The notes beneath the pieces were generated by a model. The model did no database searches, was not told the origin of the DNA, and saw nothing but the letters and a program-made list of their open reading frames with translations. The translations under genes and the position numbers were made by a program. Source: Candidatus Bathyarchaeia archaeon (GTDB lineage Archaea > Thermoproteota > Bathyarchaeia > Bathyarchaeales > Bathycorpusculaceae). From it: 64,000 nt of DNA. Positions 7,450-39,846 of the stretch are shown in pieces; position 1 is the first letter of the stretch; each line of letters starts with the position of its first letter. Location: positions 1-64,000 of the forward strand of contig JBEKXL010000010.1 in assembly GCA_049512075.1 (NCBI GenBank), given 5' to 3'.

Positions 7450-8404
7450 TACCCAAGAAATCGAGGAACCTACCGCAAACACACAGACAACACCACAAGA
7501 ACAAGCAATACTTAACGCACTAATCCCAATGGAACAAGAAATACCCGACAAACGACAATTCCAAAACCAAAAATACCGCCTCCTAAGGCTTGCCAAAAAC
7601 GCAAACATCCTAGACCAAAAAGCAGTCACTACATACATAACAACACTAAAAAGAAAAGACCAAACAACAGCATCAAAAGGATACCAAAAATGCCTATTCA
7701 CAACCTACTCACGATTTTGCAGACTCAACCAAATACCATTCTACCGACCAAGAATGAAATGCACGTACCCAATACCGCTAATACCAACAACCGCCAACAT
7801 CGAAAAAATAATAAACGCCTCAACCCGAAGAGGAGCAACAATCTTCAAAATAATGGCAGAAACCGCCGTAGAAGGAATGGAACTACACAAAACACACCGA
7901 AACCAAATAGATGCAGAAAACGGAATAATCAGCATCAAAGGATGCAAAGGACACACAAACGGACTATACAAACTAAAAACAACAACAGCCGAAATGCTCA
8001 GACAATACCTAGCCAAACACCAAGACCCCTACCCATTCCCAGACCCAAGAGCCATGAGCGAATGTTGGCAATACTACCGACGAAGAGCATCAAGAAAACT
8101 ATGCGAACCCGAACTGATGAAAATAACTCTAAAAAGCCTAAGAAACTACGCAGGAGCAATATTCTACTACGGAAAAGGAAACAAAGACCCAATCGCAACC
8201 CAACGCTTCATGCGACACACACGACTAGACACAACACAACACTACCTACAAGCAATCATTATACCCGAAGATGAAGAATACACAACAAAAACCGTACAAC
8301 TCGGAACACCAACAACACTAAAAGAAATCACCGAGTTATCCGACAACGGATACCAAAAATTCACAGAAGCCGACGGATACCAAATATTCAGAAAACGGAA
8401 ATGA
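7434..8404 (+). CDS. tyrosine recombinase/integrase, C-terminal part of att-partitioned gene
   Basis: KG-K, SLRNY, MRHxxxxTTQHY, tail GYQKFTEADGYQIFRKRK; native N-terminus lies at 12376-12452. Confidence 0.9.
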
Positions 8405-8413
8405 GGAACAAAA

Positions 8414-8599
8414 ATGAACAAACCAAAAACCGACTATACACTCGTGGAAATCAACGGAACAAACTACCCAATCGGAATCCGAATACTAGAACCCAACGAA
8501 GAAATACCACCAATCCAAAGACCCCGCAACACCACCAAAGCCATACTAATAAAAGCAGGCTTCAAACACGTCACAGAAACAGGCAAAAAACGCAAATAA
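8414..8599 (+). CDS. small protein resembling the integrase C-terminal tail
   Basis: LIKAGFKHVTETGKKRK; GAGG precedes ATG. Confidence 0.5.
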   Translation: MNKPKTDYTLVEINGTNYPIGIRILEPNEEIPPIQRPRNTTKAILIKAGFKHVTETGKKRK

Positions 8600-8652
8600 A
8601 AAGTTAAGCGCACACGCTAACAACAAACAAAAACGGGCCACATGCCATCAGG

Positions 8653-8709
8653 CACACAGATTAGACACCAAATGTATCAGGCCACACAGATTAGACACCA
8701 AATGTATCA
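8653..8709. repeat. tandem direct repeat, 27 bp x2 (30-bp period)
   Basis: CACACAGATTAGACACCAAATGTATCA at 8653 and 8683. Confidence 0.9.
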
Positions 8710-9128
8710 AAACGCCTAAAATTACGAAACTACATATATCAGGCGTAACAACAGATACAACGAATCAAAATCAACACGACCAGACACAACGTATCAAAAT
8801 CACACACCATGACGACAACGCCCTAAAAAATCGGGACAAACAACAACACTACACCGAACTACACCGTTAAGCAAAGCCAAAAACCCGAATCAAGGTAAAC
8901 CAAAACAACCCTCTCAAGCAGTAACCAAAACACCTAACCATGCTCAAAAATATCAAATGAAACAACAAATAACAATAACAATAACAATTACACCAACGCA
9001 TCAGGACAAACAACCCACTTGAGAACACAGAAACTGTCATCCACCTTAATAACACCAGAAACTGGAATCCACTTAACGCTAAAAACCAAGACCAACAGGC
9101 CAAACAACAACAACAAAAACCAAATCCC

Positions 9129-9231
9129 TTGGAGCGCAACAAAAAAACACCCAAAGGCATTGGAGCGCAACAAAAAAGCGCAAAAGCCATTGGAGCGCAA
9201 CACAGAAACCCAAAGGGATTGGAGCGCAACA
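9129..9231. repeat. iteron-like array, TTGGAGCGCAACA x4
   Basis: Copies at 9129, 9160, 9190, 9219 (period 31/30/29). Confidence 0.88.
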
Positions 9232-9765
9232 CAGAAACGCCCACTGCAGAAAAACCGCACTCAGGCTCCCTGAAGGGAGCCAAGGCATCATGGGCGCGCA
9301 AAGTACGCTCCACGAAAAACAAACAAAACGATGCAATCCAAGAATGGCAAACGTTCCAGCACAGCTCCAAACACAAAAACCAAATAATTGAAAACACAAC
9401 AGACAGACACTAAAACTTGAACACACAACACAAACAGCCAAAAATACCAAGACCAAAGGCCAACCACAACAAACAAACGAATCCAACGATTCAAAACAAC
9501 GTCAACAGACAACACGACAAAGCCAACACCAAAACTAAAACAAACGAATCTAACAATTCAAACAACAAAGGCACCTTCTAACGAAGAACACCAACAACAG
9601 ACAAAATAACAACACCACACACAGTTCTATTTAATCAAGCTGATTCATTATGTCGCGCTCAGCTCCGCCTCGCGCTCCAACACAAACAAAAACAGACAAA
9701 CACACAAAAACAATGATGAACCTAATCATGCTAACAAACAACAAAAAAGGAAAGAAGGAAACTAT

Positions 9766-10068
9766 TCACAACTCAACACGGAAAAGTTGGACCCAAACAC
9801 CAGACACCGCCAACTTACCATACCAAAAACCCTCACTCACCCGAAAACCGACATACCTAGGAACCTCCTCACAAAACCTCTCACAAACATCATCATCCGA
9901 CTCATAAGCCTCACCAAACACAGTAAAACCCACAGCACCACTCCGAACACACTCCCAACCAATACGTTGACAAACCTCACCATCAAAACAACACGGAGCA
10001 CAAACAGGAACCTCCTCACCAAACCGATTAACACGAGTAACTACATTATCATTCTTCAGAACAATCAC
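9766..10068 (-). CDS. hypothetical Cys-rich protein
   Basis: Overlaps stop of the upstream ORF; followed by T-tract terminator. Confidence 0.55.
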   Translation of the reverse strand: MIVLKNDNVVTRVNRFGEEVPVCAPCCFDGEVCQRIGWECVRSGAVGFTVFGEAYESDDDVCERFCEEVPRYVGFRVSEGFWYGKLAVSGVWVQLFRVEL

Positions 10069-10265
10069 CTCCGCAACCTCCCATCTAAAACAATCTTACT
10101 AATCTCAGAAACAACACGCGCACAACCACCACGACAAAACCGACTACCATCAAAACTCCAACCCAAATGCAAAAGATAATCCGCCTCAGAAACAAACACA
10201 CCACCACAAACCCGACAACAACAAAAACCAGAATTACCCTTCACAGAAAACCCTCCAGCAACCAC
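10065..10265 (-). CDS. small C2H2-like zinc finger protein
   Basis: CRVCGGVFVSEADYLLH. Confidence 0.6.
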   Translation of the reverse strand: MVAGGFSVKGNSGFCCCRVCGGVFVSEADYLLHLGWSFDGSRFCRGGCARVVSEISKIVLDGRLRR

Positions 10266-10305
10266 AATAAAAAAAGGGAAAATAGTGTTCCATCAGCATC
10301 ACCAT

Positions 10306-11442
10306 CTAACCTATCTTCCTACCGAAACGGTCACGCGAAACAGGAACCCAATTCTCCACGCCTCCACCATCTACCAAATCGTCGTAAAAAGAACCATTAA
10401 CACCACACTTAATCCGAGCCAACACATCAACATCAGAGCCAACATAACGAAACTCCTCAAGCGGACGCTGGCACAATGGGCAAAGCTCCTTAACCATCTT
10501 CGGCGTAACATGCAAACCACGATACGACGCAACGCCCCACCAAGTCAACAAACGAGCACCCTTAACCCCAACAGGAACACTCGCATGAGCCAACTCGTAA
10601 CTTATTGTCTTACGAATACTCCGACGAACCTCAGCCCGACCTGAAACACGGTCACGAGCAACCTTGATAATCCAACCCGTCTTACCATACTGCTCACGAA
10701 CCTTAGCCTCGAACCCATGGCAGCCCGAACAGGCCGAAACACTAGCAAAATCAACTTTAGGACAGTTTCGACAATTATAACCACCACGAATCCAACCAAG
10801 ATTATGCACATGCGGGCCATAATACCAACCCCGACCCCTAGTGTAACGGAAAGCGTGAACAACATCACAACCACCCAAAAAACCAACACCCTTCAAAACC
10901 TCACGAGACAAAAGCTTCAACTCACTACCATCAGTAACATGATAAAGCTTCATAGGAACAGAAGTGATAACATGTTCGACAAGCCCAAAATGCTTCGAAC
11001 CCTCATTTAGCCTTTCCTCAGCCCTCACACTCTCACGAAAAGCAACGCGACGGTAACACTCAGGACATGAATAACGGTCACACGAGTGCCGCCCATTCTT
11101 CATATACACCTTACCCTCAGCATGAACAATTTTACCCTCAGCATCAAAATGGTCATGATGGTCTTTAACATTCAAACAACCTTTAAAAACACCAAATTGA
11201 CCACAATTATCCTTCGTAACAGAACCCTTACCGACTAACGTCAGACCTTTATAGTAAACCCACATCGCAGCCGACTCAACATCAGCCGAAGCATGTTCAA
11301 TCTCATTCTCCTCATAAACTCGAATAGCCTCGGAATCGTCCACCATGTCCCTAACGGCTTCACCGTCAACAAAACGACCAAACTCATCCAAAAACAACAC
11401 CCTCCGTAATACGCCTACAACACTCGGTAAACCACACCCCAA
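10306..11442 (-). CDS. HUH-superfamily rolling-circle replication initiator (start uncertain)
   Basis: Zn motif HSCDRYSCPEC, motif I HVITS, motif II PHVHNLG, motif III YELAH, C-terminal CPLC. Confidence 0.8.
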   Translation of the reverse strand: MGCGLPSVVGVLRRVLFLDEFGRFVDGEAVRDMVDDSEAIRVYEENEIEHASADVESAAMWVYYKGLTLVGKGSVTKDNCGQFGVFKGCLNVKDHHDHFDAEGKIVHAEGKVYMKNGRHSCDRYSCPECYRRVAFRESVRAEERLNEGSKHFGLVEHVITSVPMKLYHVTDGSELKLLSREVLKGVGFLGGCDVVHAFRYTRGRGWYYGPHVHNLGWIRGGYNCRNCPKVDFASVSACSGCHGFEAKVREQYGKTGWIIKVARDRVSGRAEVRRSIRKTISYELAHASVPVGVKGARLLTWWGVASYRGLHVTPKMVKELCPLCQRPLEEFRYVGSDVDVLARIKCGVNGSFYDDLVDGGGVENWVPVSRDRFGRKIG

Positions 11443-12085
11443 CCAAACCCGAACATCGCAGACGTACTACGGAAAAAAACATCGTGGAAACAAAACATTT
11501 TGAAAACAGGCTACTCAACAGTAACCACCTTCCTCGGAGTAAAACGCAAACCGCCCCTACGAAGTGGACAAGCCACAACTTTACCATTAGGCTCAACATG
11601 CGTACAAGAACCCGACTCAGAAACACACCAACGCCTAAAGTCAAAACGACACGGTCTAGTCAAATAAACCACTCCCAACTAGAAAACCTAAATGGAACAA
11701 TTTTCTAGGGAATATATTTGTCTTCATACCACTTACCTCTTGGCACAACGCCCACCCGCGCCAGCAAAAGAAGAACAACTAAGAACCTAACCAGAACAAA
11801 ACCACAAAAAACCACCAAAACCAACAATTCAACTTAAACCGCACAGAGAACTCAAACCCCAAGCAGCACCACACAGCAGACCAAACAGAGTCTCAAAATC
11901 ACTCAATCAAACATAAACATCACAACAGTTCTTCCTCTGCTTTGCGCTCAGGCGAACCTTGCGCAATATCTAACTAGCAAAACAACTATAAAAATCCATC
12001 CAAATATGAAAAGTCACGAAACGCACACAGAAACGCATGTCAGTCCTCGAAGACATAAGCCTTTCCCCTTCGCAAAAGCTTCAGG

Positions 12086-36046: not shown

Positions 36047-37378
36047 CTACTGTTTGTGTAGTTTCTGTGCCGCTATGAAAGTTAGCCCGTGTCGGGTCAG
36101 AGCTTCGGCTGTGACGTTGAGCGCGTCGTGTTTGTCGAGATAGTTGGTCACGAGTTTAGGCATCAATCCCTTCTCCGTGATGTCTTTTTCGGGCATGAAA
36201 TAGTCCAAGATGTCTGACGGGTGTTCCCTTTTTTCCTCAGTTTCGGGTTTTCCGCCTTCGTGTTTTGCACTGATGTTTCTTACGTGGTTTGCGAGTTGCA
36301 TAAGCTCATCTGTGCGGTCGTAGGGTTGTCTCACGATGTTCTTGTAGGCTTCAGTGATGTGATGCTCAATGCGGACGATGTCTTCAAAGCCAAACGCTTT
36401 TCTAACGTAAGCAGAGAGCTCAATCGTCTCGTTATTAACGGAGTTTGAAAGGTTGAACCCGATGAGCGGAGTGGAACCGTCATCCCGGCTGAAAAGTTTT
36501 GCAGTCATCAACGTCCACAGGATTGAGTAGGGATTGTCGTTTCCCAGAAACACTGAAATCTTGAATTCAATGTCAATTCCCAGTTTTCGGAGCCAATATC
36601 CCAGCAAAACCGTGCCCGAATTCGTGTTCAAGACCTGGGGAAGGCCATATTCCGTGTAATATTTGAGAAACTCGTCTACCCACTTCAACGTGTAATCATT
36701 CGGAACTCCGACTCCTCCAAAATACCCTGTGATAGTGTCCGCGCCGCCGAGATGAATGTTAACGGGTTTGCCGTCTGGCCCCTGCATTGTGCCTTTAGTG
36801 TCTAACGTTTGAACGTAAGAGGCTCCTACAACCTGCATCGCAGCTGCAAAGGCTACGACGTCGTCGTCTTCAACCTGCTCTTTTATCGAACGCACCCGTA
36901 TGTAACGGGCGGGCATCAAGTTTTTCTGTGCAATAGCTCTCTTTGCCTCTTCAATAATCCATGGGAAGAAGTTGAACGCGCTGATTTCCAGTGTGACAGC
37001 GAAAGACTCGTCGAACTTTGTCGACTCCATCTTTTTTCCCAGAATTTTCTTCCGGTATTCAGGGATGCTGGTAAAGGCCTCTTCATCCCGCCTTTTCATC
37101 AGCCATTGGAGGTCCTTGACGAAGGATGATTTCTTCCTCTCAAGCCTGCCCATGAGGTTTTCAATCCTGTGAGCCTCCTTGGCTCTGCGGTTAATCTCAT
37201 CCACGCCACCGTACTTCTCAACAACTTGCAGAACACCGTCGATGAGGGGATTATCCTTCTGTAACAAGAAACTGTTTATCTCCCTCAAGTTCTCTTCGTC
37301 AATCCTCAGTCTCTCCCTAAGATCGGCCAAAATAGTCACTTCCGCCTCTAACTTTTGGATCTCAAACGATTTAAACAT
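36047..37378 (-). CDS. conserved hypothetical protein
   Basis: 443-aa ORF with enzyme-like motifs (LDTKG, HLGG, GYFGG, EHH, KHEG). Confidence 0.8.
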   Translation of the reverse strand: MFKSFEIQKLEAEVTILADLRERLRIDEENLREINSFLLQKDNPLIDGVLQVVEKYGGVDEINRRAKEAHRIENLMGRLERKKSSFVKDLQWLMKRRDEEAFTSIPEYRKKILGKKMESTKFDESFAVTLEISAFNFFPWIIEEAKRAIAQKNLMPARYIRVRSIKEQVEDDDVVAFAAAMQVVGASYVQTLDTKGTMQGPDGKPVNIHLGGADTITGYFGGVGVPNDYTLKWVDEFLKYYTEYGLPQVLNTNSGTVLLGYWLRKLGIDIEFKISVFLGNDNPYSILWTLMTAKLFSRDDGSTPLIGFNLSNSVNNETIELSAYVRKAFGFEDIVRIEHHITEAYKNIVRQPYDRTDELMQLANHVRNISAKHEGGKPETEEKREHPSDILDYFMPEKDITEKGLMPKLVTNYLDKHDALNVTAEALTRHGLTFIAAQKLHKQ

Positions 37379-37557
37379 TTCAGACCATTTGCGTACAAAC
37401 CTAAATTCCGCTTTGCTTAAGCAGAAGGAAGAACTACTTCGCCGGCTAAAGAGCTGATGGTCGTCAGCTGGAAAACATGCACAAACGTTGTGGTTTTGCC
37501 ATCATAAGACTCAAATGATATAAGAAGCCTTGTTCGAATAAGGCGTGGAGACTAACC

Positions 37558-39036
37558 ATGTACAAGCCAGAGGGCATTCTCCCCGCGTTGGTGACTCCGT
37601 TCACGGACGATGGGAAAGCTGTTGACGAACAGCGGCTGCGCACTTTGGTTAACCACTGCATCGAGTTAGGGGTTCACGGGGTTGTTCCGTGTGGGACGAC
37701 CGGCGAGTTTGTGAACCTCACGGACGAGGAGAAGAAGCGTGTAATCAAAATCGTGGTTGACGAAGTGAACGGTCGAGTTCCAGTGATTGCTGGAACAGGA
37801 GCAAGCGGCACAGACGAAGCTGTGGAATTGACGAAATACGCAAAGGACATCGGTGCCACCGCCGCGCTCGTAGTCACACCGTTCTACCTGAAACCAGCAG
37901 ACCGCGGAATATACGAGCACTACTACACGATAGCAAACAAGGTAGACTTGCCGATAATTCTTTACAACATTCCGCAGTGCACAGGTTTATCCCTTCCCTG
38001 GCAGATGGTTGAGGATTTAGCACAGATACCAAACATCGTGGGCGTGAAAGACAGCAGCGGACAGTTGAGCTTCATCTTGGCTGTCCTCGAAAAAGTCAGG
38101 GACAAAATAAACGTCCTGTGCGGACACGACGAAGTCGTCGTGGCGGCACTCGCAGCCGGATGCTCGGGGGCAATCCTTGCAAGTGCCAACATCATGCCCG
38201 ACATCTGGATTCAGATTTATGACCATGTGAAAAAGGGCGAATTACAACAGGCCCGCGAACTTCAATACAAAGTGCAGAAAATAGCGAGGATAATAGCGGG
38301 AAGCGGCGCAGTAGGGACAAAAGAAGCACTGAAGATGATGAAAATCAAGGTCGGCCCGGTGAGAATGCCGTTGAGCGTTGGGGGAGAATTGACCTACGAA
38401 TCAAAAGAGGAGCTGCGGCTTGACCTGGAAAAAATAGGGAAAGTGCAGCCGAAACAGGTAACCTTTGAACTGGCCGAGAAACCGTTGGAAGATCGTTTTG
38501 CGACCGTGGACATCACCGCCGAAGAGATTAAGAGCTTCAAACTGCGCGTCGGCGAAGCACTAGCTGGGCAGGGGGCAGAGGTGGCCCACATTGACATCCT
38601 TGTCGGAACGAAAACTGGTCCAGTGGCAGAAGCTTTCACAAAAGCTAAGGCAACACCAACGCGGGGACATGAACCGCTTCTAGCAATCCTAGAGCCAAAC
38701 CTGTCAGTCAAACCAATCACCCTAATCGTTCCAACAGTCACAATCACAGGCATGCGGCAAGCAAGCATGGTCTATGGTCCAGCCCAAACAGCCGTGGCCA
38801 AAGCAGTCATCGACAGCGTCGCAGACGGCACGATTCCGAAAGAAGCCGTTGAAGAATTAATTATCATCGCAAACGTTTTCGTTCATCCCTCAGCCGTTGA
38901 CCGGCAGCGTGTTTACATAAACAACTACAAGGCGATGCGACATGCCGTGCGCAAGGCCTTGGAGAACCGGCCCAGCATGGACGAGCTAATGGAGAACAAG
39001 GACCGGTCAAAACATCCTTTCAAGTACACACCATAG
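37558..39036 (+). CDS. dapA: DapA-family aldolase fused to formaldehyde-activating enzyme (Fae)
   Basis: N: ALVTPF, GTTGE, YNIP, GVKDS. C: VGEAL...EVAHID...PNL.VKP...GPAQ.AVAKAV.DSV.DG.IP...VFVHP...NY.A. Confidence 0.9.
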   Translation: MYKPEGILPALVTPFTDDGKAVDEQRLRTLVNHCIELGVHGVVPCGTTGEFVNLTDEEKKRVIKIVVDEVNGRVPVIAGTGASGTDEAVELTKYAKDIGATAALVVTPFYLKPADRGIYEHYYTIANKVDLPIILYNIPQCTGLSLPWQMVEDLAQIPNIVGVKDSSGQLSFILAVLEKVRDKINVLCGHDEVVVAALAAGCSGAILASANIMPDIWIQIYDHVKKGELQQARELQYKVQKIARIIAGSGAVGTKEALKMMKIKVGPVRMPLSVGGELTYESKEELRLDLEKIGKVQPKQVTFELAEKPLEDRFATVDITAEEIKSFKLRVGEALAGQGAEVAHIDILVGTKTGPVAEAFTKAKATPTRGHEPLLAILEPNLSVKPITLIVPTVTITGMRQASMVYGPAQTAVAKAVIDSVADGTIPKEAVEELIIIANVFVHPSAVDRQRVYINNYKAMRHAVRKALENRPSMDELMENKDRSKHPFKYTP

Positions 39037-39045
39037 TGAACTCAG

Positions 39046-39846
39046 TTGGCAGAACGGAGAATACTTAATGGCGACTACGCGCTTCTTAGCTTGGGCCCGC
39101 GAAAGACTTACATGATTAGAGTCGAAAATGGAAAGAGCTTCCACACCCACAAAGGCTTCATAAAGTTTGACGACCTAATCGGGAGAGAATACGGCTCCAC
39201 GGTTGAGAGTAGCCTAGGTTTCGAATTCACGGCTCTGAAACCGTTGCTCCATGACTATATCATGAAGTCCGCCCGGCAAACTCAGATAACTTATCCGAAG
39301 GACATAGCCCTCATCGTAATGTTCAGCGGGATAGGTCCGGGAAGCAGCGTTGTTGAGTCTGGGACAGGAACAGGCGCCCTGACCACGGCGCTAGCCCACT
39401 ACGTCCAGCCAAACGGCAGAATCTACAGTTACGAAATCAGAGGAGAATTTCAAAAAACGGCTGAGAAAAACTTGACCCGCGCAGGCTTGATCGACTACGT
39501 CGAGCTGAAGAACAAGGATGTCACGACTGGGATGGATGAGAGAGACGTCGATTCCGTAATACTCGATTTGGCAGTTCCATGGATGGTCGTTCCGCACGCT
39601 CAAACCGCCTTGAAGCCATGTGGAACGATAGTTTCCTTCAGCCCAACAATAGACCAAGTCGTCAAGACGGCTGAAGCCTTGAAAGAAAACGGTTTCGTGA
39701 GCATGGAGACAATCGAATGCCTCATGCGCGGAATGCAGGTCGAAAGGGGAAAAACGCGACCCCACACCTTAATGACTGGGCACACCGGCTACATCACCTT
39801 CGCCCGCAAAGCGATAAAGACTCAACCCGCCAACTCCAAACCATGA
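39046..39846 (+). CDS. trmI: tRNA (adenine-N1)-methyltransferase
   Basis: HTHKG, QITYPKD, ESGTGTGALT, LDLAVPW, TRP...HTGYI. Confidence 0.92.
   Translation: MAERRILNGDYALLSLGPRKTYMIRVENGKSFHTHKGFIKFDDLIGREYGSTVESSLGFEFTALKPLLHDYIMKSARQTQITYPKDIALIVMFSGIGPGSSVVESGTGTGALTTALAHYVQPNGRIYSYEIRGEFQKTAEKNLTRAGLIDYVELKNKDVTTGMDERDVDSVILDLAVPWMVVPHAQTALKPCGTIVSFSPTIDQVVKTAEALKENGFVSMETIECLMRGMQVERGKTRPHTLMTGHTGYITFARKAIKTQPANSKP

Follow-up and report, generated by a model that had tools for sequence, protein, structure and literature searches.

What reaction is carried out by a protein that holds, in one chain, an aldolase of the kind usually annotated as a lysine-biosynthesis enzyme and a formaldehyde-activating enzyme? 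The question is raised by a gene in a stretch of 64,000 nucleotides (the window), positions 1 to 64,000 of contig JBEKXL010000010.1 (contig C10) in assembly GCA_049512075.1 of a Candidatus Bathyarchaeia archaeon, a metagenome-assembled genome (MAG) of 2.73 Mb in 86 contigs that is 99.76% complete. The gene joins a barrel of the DHDPS/NAL family to the domain Fae, which condenses formaldehyde with tetrahydromethanopterin (H4MPT), and its close homologues are labelled either '4-hydroxy-tetrahydrodipicolinate synthase' or 'formaldehyde-activating enzyme' in the databases. The best explanation, at a probability of roughly 45%, is a bifunctional enzyme other than DapA that would interconvert pyruvate plus formaldehyde and 4-hydroxy-2-oxobutanoate, coupled to H4MPT through Fae.

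The first-pass annotation had read from the letters alone that an intact DHDPS/NAL barrel is joined to a full Fae domain, and both parts are borne out by the Pfam matches: PF00701 is matched over profile positions 2-286 of 289, which is the whole barrel, and PF08714 over positions 1-158 of 159, with the GTTGE, tyrosine, lysine and AHID features all in place. It had also named Hps as the familiar partner of Fae, and there is indeed a separate Fae-Hps on contig C1 of the same genome; the large divergently transcribed gene that it had pointed out is real, has no Pfam or NCBIfam match, and is moreover a conserved partner of the fusion, as described below. Both Pfam domains are present in 120 of 120 homologue clusters among the matches listed (481-505 aa, 85-100% identity), and the fusion is therefore confirmed as a real gene architecture and not an assembly artefact. 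In an alignment of the fused proteins, column conservation is low at aa 295-330, within the linker. The fused gene, full length or cut by a contig end, was found in 57 of 201 sampled Bathyarchaeia genomes. These are referred to as carriers and the other 144 as non-carriers; both sets include related genomes that are not independent, so that the ratios given for them are counts and not a statistical test.

The catalytic residues of the barrel are conserved. GTTGE lies at aa 46-50, followed by Tyr136 and by Lys164 within the motif VKDSSG, and in the 43 fused proteins from 41 loci over which residues were counted, K164, Y136 and T48 are invariant, with T47 and Y110 each present in 42. The lysine, the tyrosine and the threonine pair share alignment columns with three DHDPS structures, and are presumably the Schiff-base lysine, the active-site tyrosine and the GTTGE threonines of that family. 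One position differs. Cys141, in P-Q-C141-T-G, aligns to the arginine of the motif P-[SG]-R-T-[AG] in the DHDPS structures 2yxg, 3pud and 3a5f, and among the fused proteins this position is Cys in 15, Ala in 12, Val in 7, Thr in 5 and Leu in 4, but Arg in none of the 43. The aligned arginine is taken to be R138 of the E. coli enzyme, which presumably binds the carboxylate of aspartate semialdehyde. These residues mark the N-terminal domain as a pyruvate aldolase of class I, the Schiff-base lysine type, whose aldehyde site is altered.

The dapA model TIGR00674 (NCBIfam) speaks for the label of the databases, and against the reading proposed here, with the fusion scoring 257.8 bits against a cut-off of 206.15. 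This cut-off is also passed by stand-alone paralogues without the arginine, and it is therefore over-inclusive and fails to discriminate in this case. The best PDB matches of the aldolase domain are all DHDPS entries. In Bathyarchaeia with the diaminopimelate (DAP) pathway, a 343-aa DHDPS-family gene stands between asd and dapB in asd-dapA-dapB clusters. The DapA of these clusters reads IP-GRTG, GTTGES and KEATGD, keeps the arginine in 4 of 4 cases, and shares only 27-29% identity with the aldolase domain of the fusion.

A phylogeny of the aldolase domain, proposed in the first-pass annotation as a check, sets the fused proteins apart from the Arg-bearing DapA (FastTree, 166 rows, midpoint root only). 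In this tree, 29 fused aldolase domains group with a single stand-alone protein of 296 aa in a clade (SH-like support 99) that nests within a 79-row group (support 91) where Arg is absent from that site throughout (0/79). The four bathyarchaeal DapA belong to a separate clade of 38 rows (support 96), 37 of them with Arg, and of the 54 Arg-bearing stand-alone sequences 33 fall with the bathyarchaeal DapA and 21 in other groups outside the 79-row group. The fused aldolase domains are thus shown, as far as such a tree can indicate, to be a clade of single origin.

There is also little sign of a lysine pathway in which such an enzyme could serve. The first-pass annotation had noted no other lysine-pathway gene in the window, and the same holds for the whole genome, where profile searches gave dapB only at sub-threshold scores of 16-17 bits and no match for lysA, lysW or asd; the asd model finds its target in 14 of 14 control genomes. 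This, together with the replaced arginine, contradicts the alternative named there, that the gene is the sole dapA of a complete DAP pathway. Among the sampled genomes, true dapB is present in 1 of 57 carriers versus 53 of 144 non-carriers (matches over the cut-off, plus one split dapB in G193), and the lone dapB-positive carrier, G163, also holds a separate cluster DapA. On the sequence evidence, the fusion protein is not the DapA of the lysine pathway and the DapA label is rejected; through automatic annotation, a step of the lysine pathway would be attributed to these genomes in error.

A stand-alone DHDPS-family paralogue of 298 aa is present elsewhere in the same genome (G000:C5:43580-44440; L002 1483-2379, minus strand). 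It reads GSNGE...VP-KFTG...KDSSG, lacks the arginine and passes the dapA model at 218.5 bits. Three Mch paralogues are found on that contig at distances of 8-20 kb from it (C5:52083, 61354, 63337).

The Fae domain of the window gene has the features of an active enzyme. It matches TIGR03126 (one_C_fae) with 214.3 bits over a cut-off of 118.05, across positions 2-160 of 160, and the Methylobacterium Fae structure 1y5y with an E-value of 3e-35 over chain residues 3-166 of 169. AHID is found at aa 343-346, and its histidine, H344, is present in 41 of the 43 fused proteins, G350, G354 and P355 in all 43, and H486 and P487 of the C-terminal HPF in 40. Both the AHID histidine and the HPF motif are taken to be catalytic in Fae. 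This degree of conservation is that expected of an enzyme, and the Fae domain of this subtype looks functional. The genome contains four matches to Mch (PF02289), one of which is truncated at the end of its contig, and with the separate Fae-Hps this means that H4MPT-dependent one-carbon (C1) metabolism is present in the host. The Fae-Hps (G000:C1:373619-374095; L003 973-2682) is an open reading frame of 569 aa from its first ATG in which Fae begins only at about residue 176, so that either the N-terminus carries a long extension of low complexity or the start is wrongly placed.

The reaction proposed, which the first-pass annotation had already suggested, follows from three considerations, the fusion to Fae, the loss of the arginine and the analogy with Fae-Hps. 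With the arginine for aspartate semialdehyde lost, a small aldehyde that has no carboxylate would be expected as the substrate, and since the aldolase is permanently fused to a Fae domain, this aldehyde would most likely be formaldehyde. The net reaction would then be methylene-H4MPT + pyruvate + H2O <-> H4MPT + 4-hydroxy-2-oxobutanoate, in which the Fae domain would keep free formaldehyde low and channelling may take place. Fae is a homopentamer with its active site between subunits, and it is a matter of speculation whether pentameric Fae rings are joined to one another by aldolase dimers. The archaeal Fae-Hps is thought to work by cleavage and formaldehyde trapping. By this analogy, cleavage and trapping by the fusion, for example in the breakdown of homoserine or of 2-keto-3-deoxy-tetronate, would be at least as likely as synthesis, although taken by itself it is rather unlikely; the synthesis of 4-hydroxy-2-oxobutanoate, to be followed by transamination to homoserine, is a doubtful prospect in its own right. 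The condensation itself is feasible, as the available part of PMC3439479 gives an equilibrium constant of 250 per M for pyruvate + formaldehyde -> 2-keto-4-hydroxybutyrate with other aldolases.

The fusion is widespread among archaea. Clustering at 50% gave about a dozen fused representatives, down to 36% identity, including a Lokiarchaeota/Promethearchaeota cluster of 112 members that is 54% identical, and further source names include Thorarchaeota, Korarchaeota/Thermoproteota and one Anaerolineae MAG contig. Of 80 species-representative GTDB loci, a subset of at least 584 related loci, 68 are labelled Bathyarchaeia or Bathyarchaeota, and the remaining 12 are made up of six Promethearchaeota, one Promethearchaeati (LC30), Atabeyarchaeum, Thorarchaeota, Hodarchaeota, one Thermoproteota and one 'uncultured archaeon'. 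The sequence labelled 'Anaerolineae bacterium' (P0287, in the cluster of P0124) is on a MAG contig of 3.9 kb, which points to misbinning or else to a transfer into Chloroflexota.

The divergent partner gene, termed F2, is conserved beside the fusion across Bathyarchaeia and Asgard archaea. Its AlphaFold model (pLDDT 86.8) has a TIM barrel at aa 125-440. A shorter form of about 316 aa, F15, shares with it the motif FK[IVL]S[VI]F.G..NP; the apparent kinship of the two rests on this motif, on an hhalign probability of 43% and on a joint profile. In all, 121 loci were examined, 41 including the window stretch and 80 from GTDB, of which 118 have the fusion and, after removal of 6 duplicates, 112 remain. 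F2 or F15 is found no more than 600 bp from the fusion in 67 of these 112, and within 5 kb in 5 more; in the other 40 there is none in the fetched flank, 11 of these having less than 1.5 kb of upstream DNA. The arrangement is divergent in most Bathyarchaeia, while in Promethearchaeota, Thorarchaeota and Hodarchaeota the gene is co-directional and immediately upstream of the fusion. Counting strong matches, the family is present in 43 of 57 carriers versus 13 of 144 non-carriers. No other universal neighbour of the fusion was found in the loci examined, and this TIM-barrel partner probably catalyses a step adjacent to the fusion reaction.

No search assigned the partner to a known family. A search for homologues returned only proteins labelled 'hypothetical protein', a profile search against PDB sequences gave nothing below an E-value of 6.5, and the F2 model gave flat, weak lists of TIM barrels (best Foldseek E-value 8.3e-4, best VIA Z 11.8). 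The F15 model (pLDDT 73.4) matches class II aldolases in Foldseek at a TM of about 0.5. There are hints of peptidase U32: of three F15 members scanned with PF01136, one gave a weak match (E-value 2.8e-4, 20.7 bits versus a cut-off of 22.4) and another an E-value of 0.11, with no match in two F2 members scanned, including the window gene. The nearest ESM Atlas clusters of the partner gene are partly labelled U32, and VIA-align places the U32 protein Mk0906 at Z 11.4 to the partner, within the flat TIM-barrel list.

Tandem pairs of a normal fused gene and one with a degenerate Fae-like domain are seen at three sites (G015:C13:12717-15610, G057:C7:3198-6090, G051:C4:1206-4118), in the first two of which an F15 gene precedes the pair.

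Several observations weigh against the proposed coupled pyruvate-formaldehyde enzyme. There is the paralogous fused subtype just mentioned, in which the Fae-like domain has no AHID histidine and a truncated C-terminus, and the distant fused members P0128 and P0133 have no Schiff-base lysine; the Fae-like part of these degenerate and distant members may be structural there. The partner family is missing from 14 of 57 carriers, being present in 0 of 9 in family f20, and F2/F15 was not found within 8 kb of the fusion in two close relatives, L093 and L098.

In the strongest of the competing explanations, the substrate of the aldolase is a different 4-hydroxy-2-oxo or 2-keto-3-deoxy acid, from which glyoxylate, glycolaldehyde or glyceraldehyde is released, and Fae is an independent scavenger or a pentameric scaffold. 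HOGA, YagE/YjhH and the 2-keto-3-deoxygluconate (KDG) aldolases release aldehydes of this kind. The nearest stand-alone relatives of the fused domain make up a large group of the DHDPS family that lacks the arginine and has no assigned function, and KDSSG is common to the fusion and to stand-alone paralogues reading GSNGE...KFTG; the degenerate Fae domain of the paralogous subtype suggests a structural role at least there, and Fae has served as a fusion scaffold in PDB entry 8ub7. However, the Fae of the window subtype is conserved like an enzyme, with H344 nearly always retained, many invariant glycines and prolines, and a score well over the equivalog cut-off. A second, permanently fused Fae in a genome that already has Fae-Hps requires that formaldehyde be released or consumed locally, and the fusion has been kept in one clade across phyla. 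Another substrate is possible but unlikely.

A second alternative takes the formaldehyde reaction further, to a natural route from pyruvate and C1 to homoserine that would stand in for aspartate kinase, Asd and Hom in making threonine and perhaps methionine. In genome G031 (96% complete, 30 contigs), an AbrB-like gene, the fusion, homoserine kinase (thrB; NF002288, 298 bits versus a cut-off of 194), threonine synthase (thrC, 376 bits) and an Asp/Asn-tRNA synthetase follow each other on one strand; in that genome there is no match for hom and a match for asd at only 1.1e-8. Elsewhere hom abuts the fusion in G163, and the homocysteine-synthesis gene HcyBio is two genes upstream of it in 7 loci of family f20. 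Carriers are depleted in asd (18/57 versus 107/144 non-carriers) and in hom (17/57 versus 109/144), and nine have thrB with neither. In the window's own genome hom and a thrC-type gene were found, and asd and a recognisable thrB were not. The available part of PMC3439479 shows that the chain works in vitro, leading to threonine through homoserine with an aldolase, aspartate aminotransferase, homoserine kinase and threonine synthase.

There are also arguments on the other side. The state of thrB without asd and hom is shared by eight non-carriers. None of asd, hom and thrB is found in 23 of 57 carriers and there is no convincing thrC in carriers of family f4, so that a role in homoserine supply cannot be general. 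In family f20 the fusion occurs together with asd in 8 of 9 genomes (the asd match being weak, 1.9e-8, in G173), and close to the fusion in the 121 loci such genes are a minority, with thrB at 1, thrC-like genes at 3, hom at 4 and HcyBio at 10. The depletion of asd and hom could equally reflect auxotrophic lineages that scavenge, and the genomes are related rather than independent. As a rule, then, replacement of the homoserine route by the fusion is unsupported, the distribution of asd, hom, thrB and thrC speaking against it, and even as a more restricted anabolic role it is improbable. Least probable by a wide distance is the reading as a true 4-hydroxy-tetrahydrodipicolinate synthase whose fusion to Fae is incidental, for which the TIGR00674 score, the PDB matches and the database names speak, but which is opposed by the missing arginine, by the failure to find dapB, lysA and asd in the genome and the near absence of dapB from carriers, and by the true bathyarchaeal DapA, a different protein that the tree separates from the fusion.

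Some further observations concern these threonine-pathway genes. In G135 a fused gene broken by two TGA and one TAA codons (G135:C8:518030-520183; L066) lies directly 3' of hom, while asd, thrB and a copy of F2 are retained elsewhere in that genome. The eight genomes with thrB and no detectable asd, hom or fusion are G024, G075, G088, G111, G150, G156, G159 and G198, where MAG incompleteness is possible. In families f11 and f1, many genomes have asd, hom and a high-scoring thrC but no homoserine kinase of the NF002288/TIGR00191 type (0 of 14 in f11), which points to a homoserine kinase in Bathyarchaeia that may have gone unrecognised. In G110, of family f4, a 328-aa PALP-fold gene stands directly 3' of the fusion (L147, 6981 onward), in a genome where TIGR00260 gave no thrC at 1e-20.

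The features of the fusion locus are collected in Table 1. In the divergent intergenic region the ATATAA and GGAG are a putative promoter and a putative ribosome-binding site, respectively, of the fused gene. The downstream TrmI/GCD14-type gene has a homologue in 52 of the 121 loci; it is syntenic within the window genome's own taxonomic order and probably functionally unrelated to the fusion. The synteny of TrmI, of a kinase-like gene and of a beta-lactamase-fold gene is limited to that order. Away from the locus, positions 8001-12000 of the window have a strong bias in strand composition, far from that of the rest, with GC skews of -0.38 and -0.44 and AT skews of +0.59 and +0.37 in two consecutive 2-kb segments.

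Table 1. Features at the fusion locus, in window coordinates.
Feature	Position	Strand	Description and evidence
Partner gene F2	36047..37378	-	443 aa, N-terminal helical region and TIM barrel, divergent to fusion; no Pfam/NCBIfam match
Divergent intergenic region	37379..37557	.	ATATAA at 37518-37523, GGAG at 37547-37550, both 5' of the fusion ATG
Whole fused gene	37558..39036	+	492-aa open reading frame, ATG start; Pfam domains DHDPS and Fae
Aldolase domain, aa 4-290	37567..38427	+	PF00701, E 4.6e-82
Linker, about aa 291-330	38428..38547	+	Variable in sequence; between the two Pfam envelopes
Fae domain, aa 331-488	38548..39021	+	AHID His344 and C-terminal HPF; PF08714, E 5.9e-61
TrmI/GCD14-type tRNA methyltransferase, downstream neighbour	39046..39846	+	PF08704, E 2.4e-42

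The fusion hints at a connection of one-carbon metabolism with pyruvate that has so far gone undescribed. No published DHDPS-Fae fusion was found in literature searches, which did not extend to supplementary gene tables, and the accessible portion of the Atabeyarchaeia paper PMC11291895 mentions only Fae-HPS. Both domain families are known, whereas the architecture, the predicted natural reaction and the conserved partner are undescribed in the literature found. If the proposed reaction is correct, then a C1/C3 junction would be added to the archaeal Wood-Ljungdahl network, and the reaction of pyruvate with C1, which in the accessible parts of the papers found belongs so far to engineered C1 assimilation, would occur naturally. 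It could also explain why some lineages lack asd and hom but retain thrB and thrC. The most far-reaching form of the proposal, in which Bathyarchaeia and Asgard archaea have a natural H4MPT-linked 'pyruvate + C1 -> C4' route, in which the fusion and its TIM-barrel partner form 4-hydroxy-2-oxobutanoate from methylene-H4MPT and pyruvate and so feed homoserine, threonine and methionine without aspartate kinase, Asd or Hom, would have to be regarded with considerable doubt; such a route would parallel in nature the step of the engineered 'homoserine cycle' and bring Wood-Ljungdahl C1 into biomass in a new way. Few uncultured archaea are more abundant than Bathyarchaeia and Asgard archaea in sediments, peat and soils, and their carbon metabolism has been deduced almost entirely from annotation. 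The conserved gene pair offers experimenters a well-delimited target, with just two genes to express in E. coli.

Four known systems invite comparison. PanB likewise takes C1 at the level of formaldehyde from a methylene-pterin and adds it to a 2-oxo acid to form a 4-hydroxy-2-oxo acid, but it has another fold and a metal-dependent mechanism. A normal panB is present in the genome's own coenzyme A (CoA) operon, which is complete, with PoK (a pantoate kinase-like GHMP kinase), PPS, PanE, PanB, a pyridoxal phosphate (PLP) decarboxylase, Dfp and PPAT, and the fusion therefore does not replace PanB. Such a replacement is rejected for the carriers as well, since panB co-occurs with the fusion, in 29 of 57 carriers versus 42 of 144 non-carriers, and in the window genome's own order in 8 of 12 carriers versus 1 of 39 non-carriers. 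The CoA operon (G000:C4:114026-124011; L089) directly adjoins a phage-type integrase and a D5-primase-like gene.

With DapA/DHDPS (TIGR00674) the fusion has in common the fold, the catalytic Lys/Tyr/Thr set and a model score over the cut-off, and it differs in lacking the arginine of P-[SG]-R-T, in a genome where the DAP pathway was not found, and in belonging to a separate clade. The 2-keto-4-hydroxybutyrate and 2-keto-4-hydroxyglutarate aldolases catalyse the same reaction as that proposed for the fusion, but none is known to be joined to Fae or linked with H4MPT. The mammalian enzyme of this kind, HOGA1, presumably belongs to the DHDPS family. For a mammalian aldolase acting on pyruvate and formaldehyde, the available part of PMC3439479 cites Lane, Shapley and Dekker 1971; the aldolase of that paper itself is described there as of the 2-keto-3-deoxy-6-phosphogluconate (KDPG) aldolase type, a different family from the fusion, and the engineered C1-assimilation papers found, in their accessible parts, use class II aldolases, where the fusion is class I.

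There is also a likeness in architecture to Fae-Hps (NF009833), in which Fae is also fused to an aldolase-type TIM-barrel lyase that uses or releases formaldehyde, in an archaeon that uses H4MPT. The Fae-Hps model matches only aa 329-488 of the fusion, which is the Fae part, with 180.8 bits against a cut-off of 274, and the Hps domain is absent from the match. The order of the domains is reversed, with Fae being C-terminal in the new fusion, and Fae is joined to a class I pyruvate aldolase from the DHDPS/NAL family rather than to an Hps of the orotidine monophosphate (OMP) decarboxylase fold, so that the proposed carbon partner of formaldehyde would be pyruvate here where it is ribulose-5-phosphate in Fae-Hps.

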